A stretch of DNA of 56,874 nt from Candidatus Omnitrophota bacterium (GTDB taxonomy: Bacteria; Omnitrophota; Gorgyraeia; Gygaellales; Profunditerraquicolaceae). Position 1 is the stretch's first letter; each line of letters starts with the position of its first letter. Below, one piece after another: positions 6,251-16,600 of the stretch. The notes beneath the pieces are model-generated. The model was not told the origin of the DNA. It made no database searches and was given only the letters and a program-made list of their open reading frames with translations. The DNA is taken from NCBI GenBank assembly GCA_016208765.1, contig JACQXK010000015.1, positions 1 to 56,874 of the forward strand, read 5' to 3'. The position numbers and the translations under genes were made by a program.

Positions 6251-6568
6251 TTACCTGCTGTAAATAGTCTGAGTGTTTACCTGTTGCATGTTCCCGTCTG
6301 CTAATTGAATTTCTCTTTCATTTTCCTGCTGAATTAATTCCTGCGATTTTGTCTCGGATTCATTTTCAGTGTAGTTTTTTTCTTCAGCAATAACTTCATT
6401 ATTTTTCTGTTCATTAGCGTTCCTGTAAGGTGGAGCATTCACCCCGGGTATAGCGGGTATTGTGCAGCTCATTGCAATTGAAACAGTGTTTCCTGCAAAA
6501 CAATTTCCGGCAAAGGCCAGTGCTAAGAGCGTTAAAACCGCTACTTTCATAAGTATTTCTTTTTTCAT
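6251..6568 (-). CDS. small secreted protein with acidic/Gln-rich tail, unknown function
   Basis: The internal ATG at 6568 is preceded by AGGAGGCGGA and gives the signal peptide MKKEILMKVAVLTLLALAFAGNCFA. The gene is convergent with the OM protein gene, with stop codons 5 nt apart. Confidence 0.6.
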   Translation of the reverse strand: MKKEILMKVAVLTLLALAFAGNCFAGNTVSIAMSCTIPAIPGVNAPPYRNANEQKNNEVIAEEKNYTENESETKSQELIQQENEREIQLADGNMQQVNTQTIYSR

Positions 6569-6608
6569 GATCCGCCTCCTGTTTACCGTGGCTGGTGGAG
6601 GATTAAAA

Positions 6609-6643
6609 TAAAAAAACCCTAAAGGCAAGTTCGCTTTAGGGTT
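6609..6643 (-). terminator. intrinsic terminator downstream of the 1084-aa gene
   Basis: On the minus strand, CCCTAAAG-(9 nt loop)-CTTTAGGG is followed by a T7-8 run. Confidence 0.6.
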
Positions 6644-6816
6644 ATAGTTTCAACTCTTTGGTAGCTGGCTATCTCGTCATTATTTTAATTTTCAATTAAT
6701 AATGACGGACCCTTTAGTTTTGCGTACTCGGGATTACTCCCGGTTTGCCTTTGTCAGTAGTTACATTAAATTGTCAAAGTGTTATATTCTTCTTACGAAA
6801 AAAGTATAACATATAC

Positions 6817-9800
6817 TTATGTTGTTTTCAAGGCAGGCGAAGAAAAATATACTTCTATTGTGTTTATTTGCCGGTTCCTTAGTTGTTCTGCAAAAGGTTC
6901 AGGAATGGTATTGGAGTTTATTTCAACGGGATTGTTATCTTTGTCGCGAAAGGTTATTTTATTAATTTTTGCGCAGTTTTTACCAAAAGTATCCGCTCTG
7001 CCCTTATTATAATATATTACCTTAATATTACTAAACAGGTTAAAGGTGTATGTTTTTTCTTTTTTGGTAAACATCCAGCCTGGTAAACAGGGGGAAAGCT
7101 TGAAATTTAAGTTTCCAGATTCGTTAACAAAAAAAGGCTTTTTTCCAATATTCATCAAAAGCCACATTTCTATAAATTCAGCAGTTGACCCGGAAAGCCT
7201 TGCAACAAAACCATTGCCATGAAGTTTTGTATCGGGGAAGGCGCTTGAGACAATAAATGATGAATTTTCAAGTATACTTCTGCCGTAGCGTTCTGGTTTT
7301 TGGAAAGGTATCAGCAAATTTTTAAATTCCTCAAAGAATTCTTCGTTGAGCCCTTGTTTTAAGAGTTCAAGCAGGTATTTATATTCCATGTGCAGCCAGA
7401 TTGACTCATTTTCAAGCCAACCCGGAGTAAAGACTCTGCATCTTCCGATTTCTTCAGGCATGCTGTTAAGTGATGCTGTTACTTTATACATTTTAAGTTT
7501 TTTGTCAAAAAGCTCACTGTTCTTAGTCGCCTTATACAGTTGTTGCGCTGTTTTTTTATCTTCTGAAAGCCGCAAGGCATGCATTTGTCCTTCTAAGAAA
7601 TGAGGGACTCTTTTTTGGGTAAATTTCTTTGGTTTAAAAGAGTGCTCGCTAATAGTTTCATATTCTGTAACTTCGTGAAAGAAATAGGAGCAATAGATAT
7701 TGATTTTTTTATCCAATCCTTTTTCAATGGCAAGATTCACTTTACGCAGTGCATTTTCAATGATGATCAGTAATTCCGGGGAGTCAATTTCAGGTTCGCT
7801 GCCAATGAAGCCAAAATGTATTTTTTGCCTGTAATCTTCCTTGAGAGAAGCGCTGCTATCCCAATATAAATAATCTTTTTCATCGGATGTTCCAATAAAA
7901 TAGTTATTAATCAATGAGTTAATTCCGACGAGAAGATCATATATTTCCTCGGTTACCTTAACTTTCTTGACAGTGGTTTTTTCAAGAATAGACTCAATTA
8001 TTAAGATCAACCGTTTTAATTCAAATGTTTCGCAAAGAGAGGAACCAAAGAGCGCAGGCAGGCCGTTCAAGGCATCGTACCAATTTGGTTTTTCAGCTTC
8101 CATTTCAATTCCGCAGCCGGATGGGTCAAAGGAGGATAATTTGTTTGCCAAAAGGCAAAGCAGCTTGTTTATTAATGTTGTCTGATAAATTTCTCCCTGA
8201 CCAAAAGAGGATCTTGCCACATGCGGCTGTTCTGAGCGTTTTTTAATTAAATCTTTTTTAGCGTTGTCTATTTTTAAGGCATGCAACTGGCGAGGCAATC
8301 CGTTATAAAAAACATATTTCTCAGAGCGGGGTTTAACAACCTCCCAATTATCATAAAAGGTAAAAGCTCTTTTATGGAAAATAATTTCTTCTGATTTTTC
8401 CGGATAAATCGATAAATAGCTTTCTAAAAGGTCAAGATTGTATGTCCAGTGGTCTGTCCAAAAGCCTTCGCCGTGTTCTGCATCTTGAATTCTGGTGGAG
8501 TTATGAATAAGAATCCCCAGAAAATCATCATAAGAAATTATCGGTTTTATGCGGTGTTCTTCTAAAAATAAAATTACCTCTCCTGGCGAAAAAGGCTTTT
8601 TGGTAAAACTGATGATTTCTCCAAGTTGTTTGTCGTTAAGGCAATCTTTTAGAGAGTTTCCTAATTCAGGTTCGTTTTTAAGTAAGAAGACAGTGCCTTT
8701 AATTGTCAAAGGGTTAAACCCGTCTGCCTGGATCAGGTTAAAGAAATCTACCAAATTAGTTTCCTTGATTTCAGGGTTAAACCAGAGGTCTGACCTGCGG
8801 TTCTGGTTCATATCGCGATAACTACCGTTTCCTTGAGAAAAATAAGCCGGTTGAAGTTGAAATTTGTTGTAATCTCTTTCCAAGTCTCCGTGTTTTCTGG
8901 AGTATAAATAGAAGACATTTTTTTGTTCAGAAGAATTAAAAACAACCGGGTATCCGCCGCGTAAAATATTATCAAGATAGGTATTTTTGGCGTATAGATC
9001 AAACTCGCGCGAACTGCTTTGGGTTTGGATATCTTTTTGCAGGTTTGCGATTAATTCCTGATTTTCCTTTTGTTTATTTCTGAAATATTCAGCAGAGGCA
9101 ATGCGCTTAATTGCTGAGTTAAGTGTTGCAGCGCTGCGCATCTGGCCGCTTACTGAATAGATGTTTTTCTCGCTATTTCCGGCTATCTGGAAGTCAGCAA
9201 ATAAAAAAGCGCAGGGAGTTTTGCTGGTGACTTTTTCGTTTTTAGGCGGCATGAACCTGGAATTATCCTTGAATTTATCCGGGAAAGCAAAGTCTGTTAC
9301 TTGGCCAAATATATTTTCAGGGTCTGTAATAGGTTTAATAATCCTTGTTTTGTTCTTGTCTTGATAAAATCCTAAATAAAAGTTTCCTTCTTTAATATGC
9401 ACGACTTCCGGCCTGTCGTGCGGTTGAACTGCTAATTTATAGAAGGGAGCATTATTTTCAAGATTTTCCACGCGCATCCAGGCTTCAATGGTGCGGCCGA
9501 GTTTTTTGAGGAAAAAATTCGCTGTTCCAAAAGGGACGATTTGCGGAATACCGTCTAAGATTTGTATCTTCTTAGGAGTGCGGCTCAGGTTTTTAATACT
9601 AACGATTCTGGCTAATCCTGCATAATTGTCATTTGGAATATTGAAATATTCTACTGTAACTTTAATTCCAAACGTTGTATTTGTCTCTTCAAGGCGAAGC
9701 CCTTCTGGAAGAATGTACATTGCATTTGAGATCTTAAAGCCTGAATTGTTCAGGGTAGCTTGAAAAGGTTCGTAAAAATAATCTTTCTTTGCGGATGAGA

Positions 9801-10071
9801 TTTTAAGAAAAGTGCGGAAACCGCAAGATGAAACAGCCTGCCATGCTTTGTTTGCCGGCTGAAATTCCATGATAGCATGGTCCTTGTCTTTGGTGCCGAA
9901 ACTGCATACACATTGCGCCCTGTTTACATAAAAAACCCACATTGGAATACCGTATTTTCCGGCAATTCCCGGGAAGAAGTTAGCAAACGGCTTGGAAAGG
10001 TTGTAATTTTCTATGACAAATTCGCCTGATGAATTAAGATGATATTTTGTTTTTTCTGTGGTTTTAGCCAT
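6817..10071 (-). CDS. large cytoplasmic protein, GH94/cellobiose-phosphorylase-like (alpha/alpha)6 superfamily (tentative)
   Basis: 1084-aa ORF with SD (GGAGAAATC) and no signal peptide. Motifs FANFFPGIAGKYGIPMWVFYVNR and GSYRDMNQNRRSD resemble the R-D-x-N-Q-D region of glycoside phosphorylases as I recall it. The function is not secure. Confidence 0.45.
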   Translation of the reverse strand: MAKTTEKTKYHLNSSGEFVIENYNLSKPFANFFPGIAGKYGIPMWVFYVNRAQCVCSFGTKDKDHAIMEFQPANKAWQAVSSCGFRTFLKISSAKKDYFYEPFQATLNNSGFKISNAMYILPEGLRLEETNTTFGIKVTVEYFNIPNDNYAGLARIVSIKNLSRTPKKIQILDGIPQIVPFGTANFFLKKLGRTIEAWMRVENLENNAPFYKLAVQPHDRPEVVHIKEGNFYLGFYQDKNKTRIIKPITDPENIFGQVTDFAFPDKFKDNSRFMPPKNEKVTSKTPCAFLFADFQIAGNSEKNIYSVSGQMRSAATLNSAIKRIASAEYFRNKQKENQELIANLQKDIQTQSSSREFDLYAKNTYLDNILRGGYPVVFNSSEQKNVFYLYSRKHGDLERDYNKFQLQPAYFSQGNGSYRDMNQNRRSDLWFNPEIKETNLVDFFNLIQADGFNPLTIKGTVFLLKNEPELGNSLKDCLNDKQLGEIISFTKKPFSPGEVILFLEEHRIKPIISYDDFLGILIHNSTRIQDAEHGEGFWTDHWTYNLDLLESYLSIYPEKSEEIIFHKRAFTFYDNWEVVKPRSEKYVFYNGLPRQLHALKIDNAKKDLIKKRSEQPHVARSSFGQGEIYQTTLINKLLCLLANKLSSFDPSGCGIEMEAEKPNWYDALNGLPALFGSSLCETFELKRLILIIESILEKTTVKKVKVTEEIYDLLVGINSLINNYFIGTSDEKDYLYWDSSASLKEDYRQKIHFGFIGSEPEIDSPELLIIIENALRKVNLAIEKGLDKKINIYCSYFFHEVTEYETISEHSFKPKKFTQKRVPHFLEGQMHALRLSEDKKTAQQLYKATKNSELFDKKLKMYKVTASLNSMPEEIGRCRVFTPGWLENESIWLHMEYKYLLELLKQGLNEEFFEEFKNLLIPFQKPERYGRSILENSSFIVSSAFPDTKLHGNGFVARLSGSTAEFIEMWLLMNIGKKPFFVNESGNLNFKLSPCLPGWMFTKKEKTYTFNLFSNIKVIYYNKGRADTFGKNCAKINKITFRDKDNNPVEINSNTIPEPFAEQLRNRQINTIEVYFSSPALKTT

Positions 10072-10136
10072 GATTTCTCCTTAGCTGATAGATTGAAATA
10101 TTCTACCTGTTTTATTGCTTTTGTCCATAAAAAATA

Positions 10137-10164
10137 TTGCGGTTAGTAAAAAGTGTGCTATAAT
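10137..10164 (+). promoter_or_regulatory. sigma70-like promoter for the HEPN/MNT pair
   Basis: TTGCGG, then 16 nt, then TGcTATAAT (extended -10). The predicted TSS is about 2-3 nt before the ATG at 10174, implying a nearly leaderless mRNA. Confidence 0.45.
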
Positions 10165-10173
10165 AATTGGCAT

Positions 10174-10569
10174 ATGAGCGATAATGCTAAATATCTTAAT
10201 GAATGGTTGCAACAAGCTGAATATGATTTGGCCACAGCTAAAGCAATGCTTGATGCTGGCAGGAATATTTATTGCGTATTTATGTGTCACTTATCCCTTG
10301 AAAAAGCGCTTAAAGCAGCTTATTTGAAGAAAATTGATAAGGTTCCTCCTAAAATCCACAGTCTTATATATTTAGCGCAAAGTTCAGAGGTATCTTTAGC
10401 AAAGGATCATAAAGATTTTATAGAGAGTCTTGATGAGGTGAGCGTTCCTGCAAGGTATCCGACGGAGCTTGATTCAGCTTTAAAGGATTATGATAAAAAT
10501 AGGACGGAAGGGATTTTCAATAAAAGCAGGGAGATATTAGAATGGCTGAAGTTAGAATTAAAGAAGTAG
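10174..10569 (+). CDS. HEPN domain protein
   Basis: LQQAEYDLATAKAMLDAGRNIYCVFMCHLSLEKALKA and VPARYPTE are typical of PF05168-type HEPN. The listed GTG at 10153 lies inside the promoter, so I prefer the ATG at 10174. Confidence 0.8.
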   Translation: MSDNAKYLNEWLQQAEYDLATAKAMLDAGRNIYCVFMCHLSLEKALKAAYLKKIDKVPPKIHSLIYLAQSSEVSLAKDHKDFIESLDEVSVPARYPTELDSALKDYDKNRTEGIFNKSREILEWLKLELKK

Positions 10570-10871
10570 TTGGGCTTATACTTGATTTTTTGGCTCAACG
10601 CAATATTAAAGTTGACAAGGCAGTTCTTTTTGGTTCTCAGGCGAGAGGGGATTTTAGGGAGGATAGCGATATAGATATAGCTATCGTTTCAAAAGATTTT
10701 GAGGGAAAGGATATTTTTCAAAAGGCGCAAATGTTAAAAGGCCTAAAATGGTTTTTGATAGAAAAAATTTGTTTGCCGTTTGATATTATTCCGCTTTCGC
10801 CTTCTGAATGGGACAGCCCCTCTTTAATTGCGCAGTTTGCAAGAGAAGGGACGGAAATAAGTTTATATTAG
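10542..10871 (+). CDS. minimal nucleotidyltransferase (MNT), partner of HEPN
   Basis: LFGSQARGDFREDSDIDIAIV is the G-S-x(n)-D-x-D pol-beta NTase motif. SD GGGAGA is present. The gene overlaps the HEPN gene by 28 nt. Confidence 0.85.
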   Translation: MAEVRIKEVVGLILDFLAQRNIKVDKAVLFGSQARGDFREDSDIDIAIVSKDFEGKDIFQKAQMLKGLKWFLIEKICLPFDIIPLSPSEWDSPSLIAQFAREGTEISLY

Positions 10872-10887
10872 AAAATTGTAAAAAAAC

Positions 10888-10915
10888 TTGAAATATGGCG
10901 ATTTTGTGGTAAACT
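10888..10915 (+). promoter_or_regulatory. candidate promoter of the giant secreted-protein gene
   Basis: TTGAAA, then 16 nt, then TGgTAAACT (extended -10-like). Confidence 0.3.
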
Positions 10916-10990
10916 TACTTCATTGTTAAAAAATTAGGCTTCTAAGGCTTTGGAGGAGCTTTAGAAACGGATTTTGCAGGTTAAATTTTG

Positions 10991-11036
10991 AATCCGGATT
11001 GACTTATAAAATTGTCAGTCCGGATTTTTATTTTTA
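10991..11036 (+). terminator. strong terminator-like hairpin in the leader of the 11050 gene
   Basis: 13-bp stem AATCCGGATTGAC / GTCAGTCCGGATT (12 Watson-Crick pairs plus 1 GU) with a 10-nt loop, followed by TTTATTTTTAT. The SD AAGGAGG starts immediately after it. Confidence 0.6.
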
Positions 11037-11049
11037 TAAGGAGGAATAG

Positions 11050-14000
11050 ATGTCAAAAAAAATCAATAAGGTGGTAGCGTTATTTTTAACAATTTCATTT
11101 GTTTTTCAGCAGGTTGGCTTTGCGCAGATCGCTGGTGTAGAGTTAAATTTGGCAGGCGCTTTGGTAAGAATGCAGGGTAATGTGGTTACGGATAAATTCC
11201 GCCCTGCGCATATGAGATTTTTCTCTTATGACAGCCTGCATAATAATTTTAAGCTGATTTTGGACAAAGGTGACCTTAAAAATCTTAAGGGAACTGAACT
11301 TGATAATGTTTCTAAAGAATTGATGAATTATTTTTTGGTTGGGGTTACTTTAAACAACGATGCTTTTTGGGTAAACTTACGCCCAGACTCAGAAAATGAA
11401 ATAATTGATAATTTATTGGCTAAAACTGATGTGGGTAAAATTATGCTGGAAGCAGATCTTGAGCTTAAAAAAGATACTGCAAGCTTTACCTCTCCACAGA
11501 CCACTGAAGGCAAAGCTTATTGGAATAAATTATATAAGAAGGCAGAAGAGTTGTTTGGTTCAGATCAGATAACTATCCCAACTTTAACCCGCCCGTGGAT
11601 TGTGCCGGATGAAGTAATTGTGCGTGAGAATAAGGATTCGGCGTATGTTTACAAGGCCAGCTTGAAAGTGATGCTGGAGCAGGATCATTTGAAAAATTCG
11701 GTAAAGTATTCTTTTAAGGATCCGCGGCAAAAAGAATTAAATGAATACTCCAGTCAGTTGATCCGGGAGTTGATCATTCCAAAACTTAATAGGGAGGTAA
11801 ATACATCCAAGAAATATTCCCAGCTAAGGCAGGTTTTATTTTCATTGATACTTTCTCGTTGGTTTAAGAGCCGTTTTCAGGGGAAAGCAGGTGATTACGC
11901 GGCATTAATAAATAAAGCTAACCTGGCGAATCTAACCTCAAAAACTGCCTGGTCAGCAACTACTTATTTTAAAGCCTACCAGGAGTCTTTTAATAAAGGT
12001 GAATATAATATAAAGGAACCGGTTTACACGCCTACAGGCCAAGTGATCAGGAGTTATTTTAGCGGTGGCGCTGATTTAACTGGAAAATCTCTCCCAGCAT
12101 TTGGAAACACAGCAGCAAGCCCGTTAGGATTTGGAGCATTGCCCGGCATAGGAGATATTACTAGTGCGTTAAAAAACAATCGGGACATGGTTTCTGTAGG
12201 TGGCGCTGATAAGTCAGCAGCCAGCCCGATATCAGCCGAGTATGCTGCACAAATGCTCAAGAACATACTTTCCCGGTTAGAAGATGAGTTAGATACAAAT
12301 CTATTAAATCAAGCGCGTAATCTGCTTGAGAATGAACCACTAAAGACAGCACTGCACCAAAAAGATCAGGTATATCAAAATCAGGGTTTTATTAATCAAG
12401 TAATAAATATATTTCTGGGTATTAAAATAAAAGGCGAGCGGACAATCCCAGAATTGCAATCAGTATTAACTATTGGCAGTCTAATAAGTAGTAATTTTCT
12501 TCAACAACTCTCAGGCAAGTTTTTGGAAAGAATATATGACCAGGTTCGTGGTTCCTTTGTTGAGGAGAATATAAGGAGTATGGCAATTCTGTTTGATAGC
12601 GAACTTGGAAGGTCTTTCTTAAATCCAAATTCATTTAAGAAGCTTATAGAAATATTCTTGAGTAATGTAGTGTCAGAGATAGACAATATGATGCCACCAC
12701 CATCATACAAGAATGATGAAAGATTAATTTTAATAGAAAGATATGGTTCTAAGGTATTGAAAGATTTTATTATTCCTAACTGTCGGTTTATCATTGGTGG
12801 ACAAGACACTGGTATTTTTGATACAGTGCTTAGTAACTTAGATGATATTGGGCCAGGTATTGATATTAAAAATGAGTTTGACAAGATGAATAAAGAGCAG
12901 TTTATTAAATTCTACAATCATTTATTCTCTGCGCTATTATTTTCTAAAAAGCGTACCGTTGACGGCGATAACAAAATTATTGAACAAATAAAAGATATAT
13001 CATCGGTATATTTTTCGGGATCCTCTCCGCTGCAGTCAGCAGGAAGCCCGGTGGAGGATAATGAAGCTTTAAAATTGCTCTCCGGATACGTACGTGACTT
13101 TAAGGATGCTTTTAATCGCTGTATGAGAGAAATATCCCAATCTGTTATTGGTATAACATCCTCTAGTGGTTCTGTCGGGCTTGTAATGAGTGGAAGTATA
13201 ATAGATGGATCTCTTGGTACAATGAGAACATCTATTGATGAATTAGATAAGTTTGAATTAGAGAATGTTCCTAAGGATAGAATTAGTACCTATTTGACTA
13301 CATTAGGAGCGCTTAAAAAAGAAGTTGAGAGTGCCGCGAAAAATGATTCTGTTAGAAGGAATGACTATCATAGGGTTCAAGCGCTCGTTTCAGAATTCAT
13401 TGATAAATTAACTGGTATTCAGAAGGTTCCAAGTGGTCCACAAGCGGGATCATCTAGCCCGGTTGGGGAAGGCGCTTCATTTAAAGCCACAGATATGAGT
13501 AATGCTTTTCTTAGATTTAAAGGGACGCTCAATCTAATGCCGGAAGTTAATAAACAAAGGGGAATGAGGCCTGGAAATCTCGCTCTTGCAGTTTCTACTG
13601 AAGCATTAGAAGAAACCCTTAACATTCTTAAGGATATTCTTGAAGGAGTAGATGTTTTGATAGAAAAAGCAGAAATAAATCGGGCGTTGGATCTTTTGAG
13701 AAATTACAAAGAACAGCTTAAGGGTGATTTGGACCCGACTGGTCCAATGTATAAATATCTTTGGTTAATAAGAGATGCTGATGATGCTATTGGAAAAGCT
13801 ATTAAGAAATTGGAAGGAAAATCGGCGGCTTCTAGGGGAGGAGCAAGCAGCGCATTGTTAAATGATGGCTCCGCGAAGGAAAGGGAAAAAATATGGCAGC
13901 CCGATGAGATAGATGCGGCAATTGCTCAGGCTGAGAAAACTAATGTGACTGGTCCGAATACTAATGATGATTATCGTGCTGTTGTTCGTTTAGCTGATAT

Positions 14001-15435
14001 TTCGGGAATGAGCGAAGGTCAATTCCGGAAAGTGGAAAGATTATTATTAACCTTAGTTACAACAGAAGCTTCTGGGAAATTATTAGGAGTAATGGCCGAA
14101 AAAACTTTGGCCGCAGTGCGCGCCAATCATTCGCGATTTTCCCATGCGCAATCTGTTAAGCAAAATCAGCCGGTAGTTACAGGCTTTCTTCGTGAAACAC
14201 AGTCTCCCAAAGAAATTGAAACTATTATCAGGCTATTCTCCGGGTTGTTAGAAGAATTGCAGTATTCAAAAGGGAACGAGCCTGAGAGGCGTTTAGCTAT
14301 AGATATGCTGGGAAATTTAGGCGGAATGAACAAGGAGCAATTTTTTAGAGTAGTTGAGACTATTCATAAGTATCTGTTTTATAGTTCGTTTCGTTATTTT
14401 GAAATTGCCGCAGAAAACTTAAGAGGCCTATTTGTATGGTATTACCCAATCAGAGACCCTGAAAATAAAAAGCTTTTTGATAAATTTGAAGAAAATCTTG
14501 ATAGGATTAGAAAGCTGGAAGAAAATGGAGCTGCAGAATCTTCTCGGAAAATCGCCTTTATTATATCCTTGTTGAAAGATTTTGAATTATATAAAAAGAA
14601 TGGAAGGTTTTTAATGCTTGAAGAACTGGCTCCAATAACTACTCCTGTTATTTATAAAAATCTTGCTAAGGATGCGGTTACATATTATGTGCGGGATTTG
14701 GTTAATTCTAACAAAAACAAACCACTGGGCGGGGTGGGGGAGATAAATATTGCTTTACTTCAAGCTCAAATTGATAAGGCTGTTGAGCGGCTTGCTACTT
14801 TTGTGCATGGAGAATTTATTAATGGGCAAATTCCTGTTTATTCGGATGATAGGCAGCAAATTCAGGCATTTATGCAGGCAGCAGGCAGAATATTAGAAAA
14901 CAAAAATTACTGGTGGGTTAAGGCAAGCATTAATCAGGCGGCATATCATATGCGGCTGATTGAAGAGGCGCAACAGAAGGAAGTAATGAGCTCTTCTTCG
15001 GTAAATTCTGATTTAGATAATGTGAAGAGAGCTATTGGGAATGGTGACGAGTCATGGCTTGGGGAGTTATCAGGAAGCTTAGATCCTGAAGCGGCTCGCA
15101 TGGCGCAAAATGCCCTTTCTGATATGCGTAATAGACAAAATCAAAATCCTAGAGGTGATGGTAGATACTATAGTGGCAGGAGAGATACTCCATATTTTAA
15201 TAATGTGAATAGAATTGAAGAGTATTGGAAAGTGAGAGATGACTGGGGCAAGAGTAGAGGTTCTTCTGCTATCACGACAGCAGCGAGCCCTGCTGGTTCT
15301 CTTGATTCCAGTGGGATTTTAGATGTTGCTGCAATGGCGGATTCGGGATTTAATTACAAGGAAGAATATTCGTGTTTCCTCGCCATTAGCCACAGACTGG
15401 ATTTACTTGCGAGACAATTTCAAAAATATCTTTGA
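11050..15435 (+). CDS. modular secreted protein of unknown function (frame A, 1461 aa)
   Basis: AAGGAGG SD. Signal peptide MSKKINKVVALFLTISFVFQQVGFAQ. Helical modules are separated by Ser/Pro linkers (AASPLG, AASPISAEY, GSSPLQSAGSPVED, GSSSPVGEG, AASPAGS). It ends TGA TAA. Confidence 0.8.
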   Translation: MSKKINKVVALFLTISFVFQQVGFAQIAGVELNLAGALVRMQGNVVTDKFRPAHMRFFSYDSLHNNFKLILDKGDLKNLKGTELDNVSKELMNYFLVGVTLNNDAFWVNLRPDSENEIIDNLLAKTDVGKIMLEADLELKKDTASFTSPQTTEGKAYWNKLYKKAEELFGSDQITIPTLTRPWIVPDEVIVRENKDSAYVYKASLKVMLEQDHLKNSVKYSFKDPRQKELNEYSSQLIRELIIPKLNREVNTSKKYSQLRQVLFSLILSRWFKSRFQGKAGDYAALINKANLANLTSKTAWSATTYFKAYQESFNKGEYNIKEPVYTPTGQVIRSYFSGGADLTGKSLPAFGNTAASPLGFGALPGIGDITSALKNNRDMVSVGGADKSAASPISAEYAAQMLKNILSRLEDELDTNLLNQARNLLENEPLKTALHQKDQVYQNQGFINQVINIFLGIKIKGERTIPELQSVLTIGSLISSNFLQQLSGKFLERIYDQVRGSFVEENIRSMAILFDSELGRSFLNPNSFKKLIEIFLSNVVSEIDNMMPPPSYKNDERLILIERYGSKVLKDFIIPNCRFIIGGQDTGIFDTVLSNLDDIGPGIDIKNEFDKMNKEQFIKFYNHLFSALLFSKKRTVDGDNKIIEQIKDISSVYFSGSSPLQSAGSPVEDNEALKLLSGYVRDFKDAFNRCMREISQSVIGITSSSGSVGLVMSGSIIDGSLGTMRTSIDELDKFELENVPKDRISTYLTTLGALKKEVESAAKNDSVRRNDYHRVQALVSEFIDKLTGIQKVPSGPQAGSSSPVGEGASFKATDMSNAFLRFKGTLNLMPEVNKQRGMRPGNLALAVSTEALEETLNILKDILEGVDVLIEKAEINRALDLLRNYKEQLKGDLDPTGPMYKYLWLIRDADDAIGKAIKKLEGKSAASRGGASSALLNDGSAKEREKIWQPDEIDAAIAQAEKTNVTGPNTNDDYRAVVRLADISGMSEGQFRKVERLLLTLVTTEASGKLLGVMAEKTLAAVRANHSRFSHAQSVKQNQPVVTGFLRETQSPKEIETIIRLFSGLLEELQYSKGNEPERRLAIDMLGNLGGMNKEQFFRVVETIHKYLFYSSFRYFEIAAENLRGLFVWYYPIRDPENKKLFDKFEENLDRIRKLEENGAAESSRKIAFIISLLKDFELYKKNGRFLMLEELAPITTPVIYKNLAKDAVTYYVRDLVNSNKNKPLGGVGEINIALLQAQIDKAVERLATFVHGEFINGQIPVYSDDRQQIQAFMQAAGRILENKNYWWVKASINQAAYHMRLIEEAQQKEVMSSSSVNSDLDNVKRAIGNGDESWLGELSGSLDPEAARMAQNALSDMRNRQNQNPRGDGRYYSGRRDTPYFNNVNRIEEYWKVRDDWGKSRGSSAITTAASPAGSLDSSGILDVAAMADSGFNYKEEYSCFLAISHRLDLLARQFQKYL

Positions 15436-16114
15436 TAAAGTAGTTTCTGATACATTTACTAAATATGATAGGATAATAGTTTATAAATCAGGCTGGAGCC
15501 TAGTGCTGACTTCTTCTGGCTCTGAAACATCAGTAGAGGCAACAGATGATAAAGGAAATTTTGTTTTTAAAAGAAGTCAGCCACTTGAGCCTTTAGAGTT
15601 AGGATATGCTGAGTCAGGTTGGATTATTATATCAACAATGGAAAAAGAGTCAGTAATCAGAGAATTCTTGGCACAAGAAATTGCTGATGAAGCAAAGAAA
15701 GCCAGCTCATCATTAATTACTCCAAATCAAAAAGGCGGTATTGATTTTAGAGACAGGGCAATGCAGATTAAGTATGAAGCTCTGGGGAGTTTTAGCAAAC
15801 TTGATTTTTCAAAGCTTAGCTCAAATCCTGCTTTAGCGAAGATGAACCTTGATGCTGAATGGAAACAGATAAGCACAGCAGTGGGGAATGGCTATGTAAT
15901 TTCTGGACAAAGAATTGAAGAGTTTATAATTGCTTGTAACCAGAAAGGCCAGCTTAATACCAGGGCTGATGAACTACTTTGTTTCTTAGCTGATTATTGC
16001 AGGCTTCTTGAAAAAGAATGCTGTTCTACACTATTTTTTTGTTCAGTAATAAAAATTTCTGCTCGCACACGAGATTTTTTGCCGTGTGCTTCGGTTTACG
16101 GCTCACTCTCGTAA
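15323..16114 (+). CDS. probable C-terminal continuation of the 11050 gene in the +1 frame, with its 3' end apparently truncated
   Basis: There is no plausible start or SD. The sequence continues the linker/module grammar (VSSPLATDWIYLRDNFKNIF; KKASSSLITPNQKGGIDFRD). The last ~30 codons (STLFFCSVIKISARTRDFLPCASVYGSLS) read into a hairpin element and look non-genic. Confidence 0.55.
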   Translation: MLLQWRIRDLITRKNIRVSSPLATDWIYLRDNFKNIFDKVVSDTFTKYDRIIVYKSGWSLVLTSSGSETSVEATDDKGNFVFKRSQPLEPLELGYAESGWIIISTMEKESVIREFLAQEIADEAKKASSSLITPNQKGGIDFRDRAMQIKYEALGSFSKLDFSKLSSNPALAKMNLDAEWKQISTAVGNGYVISGQRIEEFIIACNQKGQLNTRADELLCFLADYCRLLEKECCSTLFFCSVIKISARTRDFLPCASVYGSLS

Positions 16115-16208
16115 CGGGTTTCGCAAAACCTGTGTACTCTCGTTCGCCGTAAAACCTAGCACACTAGTAATTATAGCGATGCCAAAAAATCTCTGATTGT
16201 GTGCTCAC
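16061..16208. repeat. ~150-nt long imperfect inverted repeat (hairpin element)
   Basis: Paired blocks are GCACAC/GTGTGC, GAGATTTTTT/AAAAAATCTC, GTGTGCT/AGCACAC, GGTTTACGGC/GCCGTAAAACC and GGTTT-cgc-AAACC at the centre (~16122). Confidence 0.6.
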
Positions 16209-16259
16209 AGAAACTTTTATTGCTTTAGATATCATGATAGTACAAAATGAATTAAAGCC

Positions 16260-16285
16260 GTAACGGAGGTTTAAACCTCCGTTAC
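16260..16285. repeat. perfect 26-nt palindrome
   Basis: GTAACGGAGGTTTAAACCTCCGTTAC is self-complementary. Confidence 0.9.
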
Positions 16286-16329
16286 AGTCCTCCCAGGTTA
16301 GAATTATAACTTTTATTTTTACGGGTGAC

Positions 16330-16600
16330 AAGGCATGTTTTAAGCAGCACGTTAGAAAGCTCTTGCGGGCATGGTTCGCCCGCTATCACATAGTTGGCGA
16401 GAGCAAGAGCTTTCGCCCGAGCGAAGATTTTCCACGCAGGGGAAAATCAAGCGGTGCTGCGAGAAATATGCCTTGGCACCCGAATACGCTAAGTGTTACC
16501 GAGAAACACAAGCCAAGGCAGAGTTTAAGTGAATAAATCTCGTGAGCGAAGAGAAATTTTTGTTGCTGATAAATTTCCCAGATAAACTTCACATATCACT
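16330..16600 (+). other. relatively GC-rich multi-hairpin non-coding region (candidate ncRNA or element remnant; strand uncertain)
   Basis: Stems seen: AAAGCTCTTGC..GCAAGAGCTTT (11 bp), GGGC..GCCC, TTCGC-ccga-GCGAA, ATTTTCC..GGAAAAT, TGCCTTGGC..GCCAAGGCA (9 bp) enclosing GTGTT..AACAC, and GAAATTT..AAATTTC. I recognised no Rfam family. Confidence 0.35.

Follow-up and report, generated by a model that had tools for sequence, protein, structure and literature searches.

Candidatus Omnitrophota are abundant, uncultured and ultra-small bacteria, and whether they live freely, as epibionts or as predators is debated. The accessible literature on the phylum centres on giant proteins of 10 to 147 kilo-amino acids (kaa), which have many transmembrane helices and C39/S8 peptidase domains or dockerins (West-Roberts et al. 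2023 preprint; 2026 complete-genome preprint). The gene described here lies at 11050..16114 on the plus strand of a 56,874-nucleotide (nt) stretch of an Omnitrophota genome (assembly GCA_016208765.1, contig JACQXK010000015.1; the whole stretch is called the window below), and it points to a broader two-ended chassis: a conserved N-terminal domain (N-domain) and a C-terminal GGIDF domain with variable cargo in between. Thousands of proteins, several per genome, appear to be built on this one chassis of no known fold, with loads as diverse as orphan helical modules and central glycolytic enzymes. If the two ends are export or assembly handles, they would represent a new way to organise or deliver enzymes and a direct lead on partner interaction; if the proteins stay inside the cell, they would form a new kind of bacterial metabolon. 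The locus also yields two high-value structure targets and a candidate regulatory RNA class with 30 examples.

The nearest biological relatives of the family are the Omnitrophota giant multi-enzyme proteins and Archaeovorins, which come from the same phylum and have in common with it signal peptides, a cargo repertoire of enzyme strings (PPDK_N, NUDIX, HEAT, radical SAM, sugar metabolism) and unannotated stretches. Unlike them, the window protein is 1.7 kaa long and its leader is the only hydrophobic segment; the three main Omnitrophota genomics papers make no mention of the family's terminal domains, the N-domain and the GGIDF C-module. In the open-access literature (subscription-only papers being outside the scope), no description of the family, its terminal domains or its leader RNA was found.

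Three better-described systems share parts of this design. Cargo proteins of the type IX secretion system (T9SS) resemble the family in having an N-terminal signal peptide, diverse cargo and a conserved C-terminal domain (CTD) of ~100 amino acids (aa), which many dispersed paralogs carry and a common machinery presumably reads. In contrast to the beta-sandwich CTD, the C-module of the family is an all-alpha bundle that follows a disordered GGIDF, and searches of Pfam and NCBIfam gave no match to TIGR04183 or to a Pfam CTD. The family also differs in its second, larger conserved domain at the N terminus and in its cytoplasmic-enzyme cargos, and T9SS belongs to Bacteroidota whereas the family belongs to Omnitrophota, within the Planctomycetota-Verrucomicrobiota-Chlamydiota group. 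Dockerin-tagged enzymes of cellulosomes likewise combine unrelated catalytic modules with one docking module, use Ser/Thr/Pro linkers and are co-localised by a scaffold; the family instead has two conserved modules per protein and no cohesin signature, no scaffoldin was identified, and dockerin PF00404 gave no Pfam match in the window protein at E<=0.1. Polymorphic toxins and effectors (Rhs, CDI/CdiA, MafB) offer the third parallel, with conserved trafficking parts, payload exchange at defined junctions and several copies per genome. Unlike theirs, the variable region of the family is internal with both ends conserved; immunity genes are absent, the payload consists of orphan helical modules or housekeeping-type enzymes and not of toxins, and Rhs, filamentous-haemagglutinin and PT-TG-type domains are missing.

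Other export-related designs fit less of the protein. No type V autotransporter barrel was matched in Pfam, the N-domain being mixed alpha/beta and the C-domain all-alpha, and the elongated helical bundle with beta-tongue that typifies the ClyA/NheA/Mak alpha-pore-forming fold was not found. A double-glycine C39 leader is absent, since the invariant GG lies ~115 aa from the C terminus and not in the N-terminal leader.

A large Omnitrophota family with conserved ends and exchanged cargo

The Omnitrophota N-domain/GGIDF-domain family is defined by the present analysis and has no curated model. A search with the 1461-aa open reading frame (ORF) that begins at 11050 returned more than 1,093 proteins, nearly all from Candidatus Omnitrophota, which match the first 23 to 30% of the query, are 55 to 70% identical to it in this N-terminal part and carry unrelated domains beyond. 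Nearly all of the 120 best matches begin with a leader ending in FQQxGFAQ, and the members inspected have a fixed layout of leader, N-domain, Ser/Pro linkers, cargo, linker, K/T-GGIDFR and a C-terminal region of ~115 aa. A HMMER scan of 1.84 billion representatives recovered 7,369 clusters (5,356 at E<=1e-30), throughout which the N-domain always occupies residues 1 to 350 of proteins ranging from ~450 to 6,439 aa. Two invariant peptides, used to scan GTDB species representatives, located 412 confirmed loci, with at least five copies in the metagenome-assembled genome (MAG) JBDRKE01 and at least four each in JBAZTA01 and SCRK01; all copy numbers per genome are lower bounds. The few labels from outside the phylum are "uncultured Planctomycetales" bin names and two short contigs in other bins, the latter probably mis-binned. 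Judged by these sequence comparisons, the window gene is a typical member of a very large, undescribed paralogous family that is essentially confined to Candidatus Omnitrophota.

The cargos form a diverse set. Glycolytic and sugar enzymes include phosphoglycerate kinase (PGK), enolase, glyceraldehyde-3-phosphate dehydrogenase (GAPDH), phosphoglycerate mutase, cupin-type glucose-6-phosphate isomerase, pyruvate phosphate dikinase (PPDK) and phosphoglucomutase. Other members carry class II aldolase/GlpX, adenylate and guanylate kinases, NUDIX, DnaJ, HEAT and TPR repeats, methyltransferases, radical SAM, FHA plus metallophosphoesterase, or cellobiose phosphorylase. Several enzymes may be fused in a single member, as with GAPDH, PGK and enolase in P0075, GAPDH-PGK in P0041 and a combination of PPDK and PGK; fusions of two or three consecutive glycolytic enzymes occur in P0023, P0041, P0075, P0077 and others, one GAPDH-PGK-enolase protein measuring 2,513 aa. 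At the other extreme, the 609-aa P0150 consists of both ends joined by a low-complexity linker only, with no cargo, which identifies the two ends as the invariant chassis.

The ends of this chassis change together. Pairwise identities of the N- and C-domains co-vary among 105 complete members (Spearman 0.64; permutations <=0.09), while cargo similarity is detectable in only 54 of the 352 pairs with >=80% identical N-domains, and paralogs carrying unrelated cargo still have 60 to 97% identical N-domains. Since the ends co-vary while cargo is rarely shared, matched ends persist and the cargo between them is replaced.

In the window gene the cargo is a series of helical modules between linkers. 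Its first part (12070..15336, plus strand) opens with a low-complexity linker and is punctuated, on translation, by SAASP (12214-12228), SGSSP/SAGSP (13015-13050), GSSSP (13447-13461), MSSSS (14986-15000) and TAASP (15277-15291). Its second part (15337..15730, plus strand) is read in the frame of an ORF that starts at 15323, covers ..RIRDLITRKNIRVSSP with the linker VSSP (15374-15385), includes a small alpha/beta-looking module and contains the linker KASSS (15698-15712). Nine Ser/Pro linkers are found in the protein altogether, among them the AASP, GSSP, SSSP and ASSS from which an earlier annotation by a model that saw only the letters and their ORFs (the sequence-only reading) had described a modular protein, a description that suits the linker-separated helical modules between two conserved ends.

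Homologs of cargo residues ~396 to 1429 are found only in P0002 and P0003, two syntenic orthologs. Compared as DNA, the window and the ortholog locus form a mosaic, in which the N-domain, the C-domain and some modules match while module order differs; 12160-13037 and 14979-15723 are specific to the window in comparison with the ortholog locus. The mosaic breakpoints at 13037, 13402/13460, 14979 and 15723 coincide with the SAGSP, GSSSP, MSSSS and KASSS/KGGIDF linkers. The window cargo is a lineage-specific orphan string of helical modules that recombines at Ser/Pro linkers.

The window gene is intact, with two assembly dropouts

At 5065 nt the interval 11050..16114 cannot be divided evenly into codons, and the window reads as two ORFs in different frames, 11050..15435 (1461 aa) and 15323..16114 (263 aa). 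By three-frame translation, the frame changes somewhere from 15323 to 15435, where one frame terminates in ..NYKEEYSCFLAISHRLDLLARQFQKYL and two stops and the other reads ..RIRDLITRKNIRVSSPLATDWIYLRDNF.. and carries on in Ser/Pro-linker style; the gene caller used for the window split the locus into P0001 and a separate 235-aa P0200. For comparison we used Logan contigs of four independent groundwater-metagenome runs (X1-X4) from one study. One X1 contig reads 14925-15336, 119 extra letters, 15337-16031, 154 extra letters and 16031-16092, and matching loose ends are present at the 119-nt site in X2-X4 and at the 154-nt site in X2 and X4. The window's own junctions (15336/15337 and 16031) are supported by none of the listed Logan contigs. 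Across 10700-15000 the independent contigs are identical to the window at every base, and all module junctions are spanned.

The first dropout (15336..15337, plus strand) lacks 119 nt, of which the outer 30 + 30 letters are known (first 30, AATGAACAGGCTAAAAGTCTTCAAAAAACG; last 30, GATGTATAAGGCTGCACAGGACATAGAGAA) and the middle 59 nt (~20 aa) were not seen. Because 119 leaves a remainder of 2 on division by 3, the frame of 11050 moves exactly onto that of the 15323 ORF, and the restored junction translates ..VAAMNEQAKSLQKT..MYKAAQDIEKRIRDLITRK.., that is, ..VAAM-NEQAKSLQKT..(~20 aa)..MYKAAQDIEK-RIRDLITRK... The end of the first ORF as printed in the window (15337-15435, plus strand; ..ADSGFNYKEEYSCFLAISHRLDLLARQFQKYL, then a stop) is an artefact. 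The 119-nt segment had no exact match among Joint Genome Institute (JGI) metagenome contigs.

The second dropout (16031..16032, plus strand) lacks 154 nt, which carry the tail PKEVMESMVI.. together with the true stop and a terminator's 5' arm. After ..LLEKECCST the window continues with residues unrelated to the family, and the conserved tail is not encoded downstream in it; the extra letters after 16031 give P-KEVMESMVI, which is this missing C-terminal tail. The closest relatives P0002 and P0003 end in ..LLEKECCSTPKEVMESMVIVETKLQG, and the ortholog tail is PKEVMESMVIVETKLQG. The letters before the window resumes complete the terminator AATAGGCTGTCTGAAATTTTCAGGTAGCCTATTTTTTT, a canonical intrinsic one whose U-tract is window 16033-16040. 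The stretch 16032..16114 (plus strand; LFFCSVIKISARTRDFLPCASVYGSLS, then a stop) diverges from every family member, lies inside a repeat and is non-coding, the final 28 codons before 16114 being read-through into that repeat.

Both lesions are defects of the present assembly. The gene encodes a single protein of ~1717 aa, because the extra 119 and 154 nt restore frame and tail and the rest of the gene agrees, and its true stop sits in sequence that the window lacks. The ~1.7k-aa size given by the sequence-only reading therefore holds for the restored protein and the single printed ORF does not, as there are two frames; nor is 11050-16114 the extent of the gene, 16114 being an artefactual stop beyond a missing conserved tail. 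Taken literally, the window would hold a decaying pseudogene or two separate genes here, which would account for the frame break at 15323-15435, the lost C-terminal tail and the two called proteins. Against this stand the two segments, found in the four runs, that repair both lesions exactly, the want of support for the window junctions in the listed contigs and the retention of all invariant N- and C-domain residues, and the independent contigs essentially exclude it. Collapse of a repeat was rejected as the cause of the dropouts, as no similar copy of the missing segments occurs elsewhere in the window. Metagenome assemblies of mosaic genes may thus lose short segments and produce false frameshifts, and other mosaic genes on such public contigs may hide dropouts like those of 119 and 154 nt.

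Two terminal domains of no known fold

The N-domain (11182..12069, plus strand; aa ~45-340, FRPxHxR ... RSYFSGG) retains all ~80 family-invariant positions in the window gene (alignment A1; FRP, WVNLRPD, IPTLTRPWIVP, RSYFSGG). It is 55 to 82% identical to the members overall and 55 to 70% identical to more than 1,000 proteins. The conserved part covers ~300 to 320 aa, not the ~200 aa first assigned to an N-terminal domain in the sequence-only reading. An AlphaFold2 (AF2) model gave a mixed alpha/beta fold with two hairpins (core predicted local distance difference test [pLDDT] ~90, predicted template-modelling score [pTM] 0.70), for which no fold match was found in PDB.

Asp, Glu, Arg, Lys, Trp and Tyr are abundant among the invariant positions (LEADLQLKKDT, IPTLTRPWIVP.E, MLEQD), and the 60 to 97% identity between paralogs is more constraint than simple anchors usually show. 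Such features would suit an N-domain that is itself an enzyme or a glycan-binding module, acting for example on cell wall or surface polymers, with the remainder of the protein modifying or targeting the activity. This explanation is improbable in our judgement: the domain has no recognisable catalytic motif and no fold relative, and the universal C-module and the complete-enzyme cargos would be left unexplained.

The C-terminal GGIDF domain (15731..16031, plus strand; KGGIDFR ... LLEKECCST) was recognised by tblastn against ortholog C-domains, and in the window it is cut off just before its last ~17 codons. The KGGIDF near the end of the protein, already picked out in the sequence-only reading, begins this domain at 15731. 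We define the C-end of the family as GG[IVL]D[FL], a helical C-domain and then a tail of the ..E[AI]LV..[DE]S type. In the C-domain alignment (A2) only GG.D plus one Glu are invariant columns; exactly one GG[IVL]D[FL] lies 110 to 135 aa from the C terminus in ~100 of the 120 best matches. The window gene has the GGIDF and the helical domain, with its tail PKEVMESMVI present only in the independent contigs, and five of the seven cysteines of the protein fall within the C-domain.

A full-length model of the 828-aa member P0089 reproduced the N-domain and gave a C-terminal five-helix bundle at pLDDT >90, with no PDB relative. GGIDFR, just ahead of the bundle, is unstructured in this model. The C-module of the chassis consists of this disordered motif and a helical bundle of ~95 aa. 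Because it is invariant yet disordered, GGIDFR may be a linear recognition, docking or processing motif and not a component of the fold, as the model suggests. A search of the big database with a C-domain profile found five proteins and missed known members, so it is uninformative on distribution. Stand-alone C-domain proteins were considered and rejected, the short matches being contig-end fragments or mis-called starts.

Sequence searches of Pfam, NCBIfam and PDB with both ORFs and the family profiles returned nothing beyond coiled-coil noise. This bears out the earlier statement that the protein has no recognisable enzymatic or adhesin domain, whether by sequence or by fold in these databases; nor was there homology to a characterised family, and structure modelling with fold comparison also came back blank.

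A predicted exported chassis, and where its cargo might go

The protein begins with a signal-peptide-like leader (11050..11124, plus strand), MSKKINKVVALFLTISFVFQQVGFA/Q, in which the slash marks the putative cleavage site. It has a basic n-region, a hydrophobic core of ~12 aa and the c-region FQQxGFAQ, and it is the sole hydrophobic segment of the whole protein. Across 186 members the leaders are 23 to 29 aa long, with an n-region charge of +1.9 and a core of ~12 to 14 residues, and FQQxGFAQ is conserved at 68 to 95%; the window has ..FVFQQVGFAQ at aa 17-26. Inspection and family statistics show small residues at -3/-1 (G-F-A/Q), no lipobox Cys and no twin-arginine, consistent with cleavage after GFA. 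The signal peptide named in the sequence-only reading is thus borne out as a signal-peptide-like leader, and the N-terminal stretch quoted there, WVNLRPDSENEIIDNLLAKTDVGKIMLEADLELKKD, is present too. Ser/Pro linkers are typical of secreted modular proteins. Sec-type export is predicted from the linkers and from this leader, the protein's one hydrophobic stretch, with its +1.9 n-region, short core and G-F-A/Q.

We put the probability at about 0.5 that the window gene encodes a Sec-exported chassis protein whose two ends are shared handles for docking, anchoring, assembly or onward secretion. The leader would carry the protein across the cytoplasmic membrane, and the two co-evolving terminal domains would act as common handles that place all members at one envelope or surface site or on one export route, so that diverse cargos become co-localised. 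The disordered, invariant GGIDF would be a recognition or processing site, and cargo of any kind could be inserted between the ends and exchanged at linkers. Transcription of many members, the window gene included, would be gated by a shared leader RNA ending in an intrinsic terminator. The effector or surface-organising role put forward in the sequence-only reading is a viable candidate as well.

Several observations weigh against this interpretation. PGK, GAPDH, enolase, adenylate and guanylate kinases, radical SAM and DnaJ cargos need cytoplasmic cofactors and would be expected to be useless in the periplasm or on the surface. No dedicated transporter, sortase or protease gene recurs beside family genes, and AF2 of a full-length member, inspected without contacts or predicted aligned error, shows no docking of GGIDF onto the N-domain in cis. 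The co-variation of N- and C-domains could reflect shared descent alone, and the strongly conserved polar residues of the N-domain would fit an enzyme too. An internal stop is formally possible within the 59 unread nt of the 119-nt segment. The ATP- and NAD-dependent cytoplasmic cargos in particular keep two other destinations in play, delivery into a partner cell and a metabolon on the membrane's cytoplasmic face.

For delivery, the proteins would be effectors directed at a host or prey cell, the N-domain serving in translocation or receptor binding, the C-module as a secretion or chaperone signal, and the cargos acting in the other cell. Omnitrophota may live as epibionts or predators. For the phylum, traits of symbiosis or predation have been reported (PMC10066038; 10.1101/2023.11.21.568195), ATP and NAD would be on hand in a recipient cell for metabolic-enzyme cargos, and cytoplasmic-type enzymes do stand behind a signal-like leader. 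Cargo turns over fast between conserved ends, as in polymorphic effector systems, and ClyA-type pore formers are the only recurring theme among the weak fold matches. Toxin domains and adjacent immunity genes are absent, however, the genes lie among housekeeping genes and not by secretion loci, the variable part is internal instead of C-terminal, and glycolytic enzymes would be odd effectors, all of which makes this destination rather unlikely.

The metabolon would have the leader as an uncleaved anchor or oligomerisation helix, with N- and C-domains polymerising or docking at the inner face of the membrane and gathering the cell's own glycolytic and other enzymes. Fusion of whole lower-glycolysis sets (GAPDH-PGK-enolase in P0075, GAPDH-PGK in P0041) and the housekeeping gene neighbourhoods speak for it, and the PGK signature motifs of P0072 look intact by eye. 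Lower glycolysis is reported to be universal in complete Omnitrophota genomes (10.64898/2026.06.07.730766), so the enzyme fusions could be working copies. Members with glycolytic cargo are solitary among housekeeping genes, which does not decide their localisation. A core of ~12 to 14 residues with positive charge on its N-side and GFA/Q is, on the other hand, the signature of a cleavable Sec signal that leaves the C-terminal part outside, and Ser/Pro linkers are unusual in cytoplasmic proteins; we consider the metabolon unlikely, if worth keeping in view.

The exported chassis may be taken one step further. It is conceivable, though we would not count on it, that the N-domain and GGIDF-module make up an undescribed Omnitrophota sorting or assembly system that takes cytoplasmic enzymes, including GAPDH-PGK-enolase sets, out of the cytoplasm and co-localises them, with the envelope or surface or a host or prey cell as destination, linker cassettes being swapped and a riboswitch-like leader gating expression.

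A candidate regulatory RNA upstream of family genes

A family-specific 5' leader RNA precedes the window gene (10930..11035, plus strand; covariance model R1, 53 bits, E=6.6e-11). Its hairpin spans 10940-10966, with the UUGGAGG loop at 10950-10956; the terminator stem is formed by 10990-11003/11014-11027, and the U-run extends to 11035. The model matches the window once only, at 10930-11033. The ribosome-binding site AAGGAGG (11039..11045, plus strand), read directly from the sequence, ends 4 nt ahead of the ATG at 11050.

The same leader recurs across the family. In about 28 of 73 family loci, a hairpin with a highly variable stem and an (A)UGGAGG loop that stays constant occurs together with a GCCACG box and a terminator hairpin with its U-run. 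When 641 kb were scanned with the covariance model, for which 19 leaders served as seed, there were 30 matches at E<=0.01, each immediately upstream of a family gene and on its coding strand; 11 of these lie outside the seed, including that of the GAPDH-PGK-enolase member. This last gene (L083; leader RNA 9565-9675) has the same leader RNA as the window gene. In an alignment that is itself fitted to the structure, 81% of cells pair as against 62% in shuffles, 18 of 19 pairs have double changes, and the covariation score is 0.56 versus 0.21 in shuffles, a value reached by 0 of 500 shuffles, with slid controls at 0.03 to 0.14. RNAalifold on a MAFFT alignment of the leaders recovered the terminator only, the hairpin being out of register, which realignment to the covariance model solved. 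The window leader folds at -36.6 kcal/mol (z=-4.9) and is a divergent variant, with UUGGAGG as its loop and GCAGG in place of GCCACG.

Searches of the window leader against Rfam 15 (4,227 families) gave nothing beyond noise even at E<=10, and 20 canonical leaders had no Rfam match. The leader is best described as a covarying, family-specific RNA with a terminator and as a candidate for a new regulatory RNA class; the terminator reported in the sequence-only reading is real, and belongs to this RNA instead of being generic. Transcription may be attenuated through it. In many copies a 5' AAUCCGG could, by inspection, pair with the CCGGAUU arm of the terminator, which suggests an anti-terminator. 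Riboswitch and attenuator leaders have similar features, namely a covarying hairpin followed by a terminator just upstream of the ribosome-binding site and a possible anti-terminator; unlike them, the family leader goes with a set of paralogous proteins instead of a pathway, and has no Rfam match. Given its small hairpin with a Shine-Dalgarno-like UGGAGG loop and the GCCACG box, the trigger could as plausibly be a protein, the ribosome or a small RNA as a metabolite. A leader peptide starting from the AUGGAGG loop was rejected, inspection having found no consistent ORF across loci.

A consensus scan found a promoter-like site upstream of the leader (10888..10915, plus strand) with TTGAAA, a 16-nt spacer and the TG-extended GGTAAACT. 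It is a putative promoter, its -10 region resembling that of other family loci (..TGTGGTATACTTA..). Family genes without the leader RNA often have a highly conserved promoter-like box instead, CCTTGAA-N11-CCTATATAGCATACTT followed by GGCTGATAAACC-like sequence, ~40 to 120 nt upstream (L042, L044, L045, L047, L055, L060, L070, L072, L077, L079 and others). The strict box pattern occurs in 10 family upstream regions and in 3 other places in 1.18 Mb, one of which is the promoter ahead of a leader-bearing family gene. The CCTTGAA box suggests a common regulator or sigma factor.

Genomic setting

Directly upstream of the window gene lie a HEPN gene (10153-10569, plus strand; PF05168, E=1.9e-21) and an MNT-type nucleotidyltransferase gene (10542-10871, plus strand; PF01909/PF18765, E~1e-12), which overlap at 10542-10569 and form a toxin-antitoxin pair (10153..10871) separate from the family gene. 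Pfam thus agrees with the sequence-only reading on the adjoining pair. The accessory block in which that reading placed the gene shrinks to this pair alone: the order 1077-aa gene (minus strand), family gene, gatC-gatA-gatB and CtpB in GCA_020063045.1 is the window order without HEPN-MNT, and 10131-10879 has no counterpart in the ortholog (between 7776 and 7797 of L001), a clean insertion of ~750 nt. The insertion sits between a 1084-aa gene and the promoter of the family gene. The family gene appears from this synteny to be a stable chromosomal resident with a hypervariable interior and not part of an accessory island. Across 80 loci, orthologous synteny apart, no neighbour recurred, and 3 of the 80 have tandem copies.

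The gene downstream of the family gene is gatC, and a multi-copy repeat (16043-16569) lies between it and the terminator of the family gene. Contig depth is 30-80x at 16059-16485 compared with ~6.8x in the flanks. The edges of the repeat are 38-nt inverted repeats (16043-16080 / 16532-16569) that are 84% complementary, and many copies are without 16231-16323, which contains a perfect 13-bp palindrome (16260-16285). A search of Rfam gave no match to the repeat even with the threshold at E<=1; the repeat may be an element like a miniature inverted-repeat transposable element (MITE), or a structured RNA. In the ortholog genome its right half (16308-16570) recurs at the corresponding position with 84% conservation.

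On the other side, divergent from the family gene, the 1084-aa protein (6817-10071, minus strand) has no Pfam match and is conserved and syntenic (1077 aa in L001). In another Omnitrophota MAG, a cobalamin riboswitch (80 bits; L033, 6825-7067) lies downstream of a family gene and is unrelated to the family. The window itself contains a c-di-GMP-I riboswitch (6657-6759, minus strand; RF01051, 47 bits against a gathering score of 35), directly upstream of a small ORF (6251-6628, minus strand) with a signal-peptide-like start, MKKEILMKVAVLTLLALAFAGNCFAG.., and the ortholog locus has a 106-aa gene in the same place.

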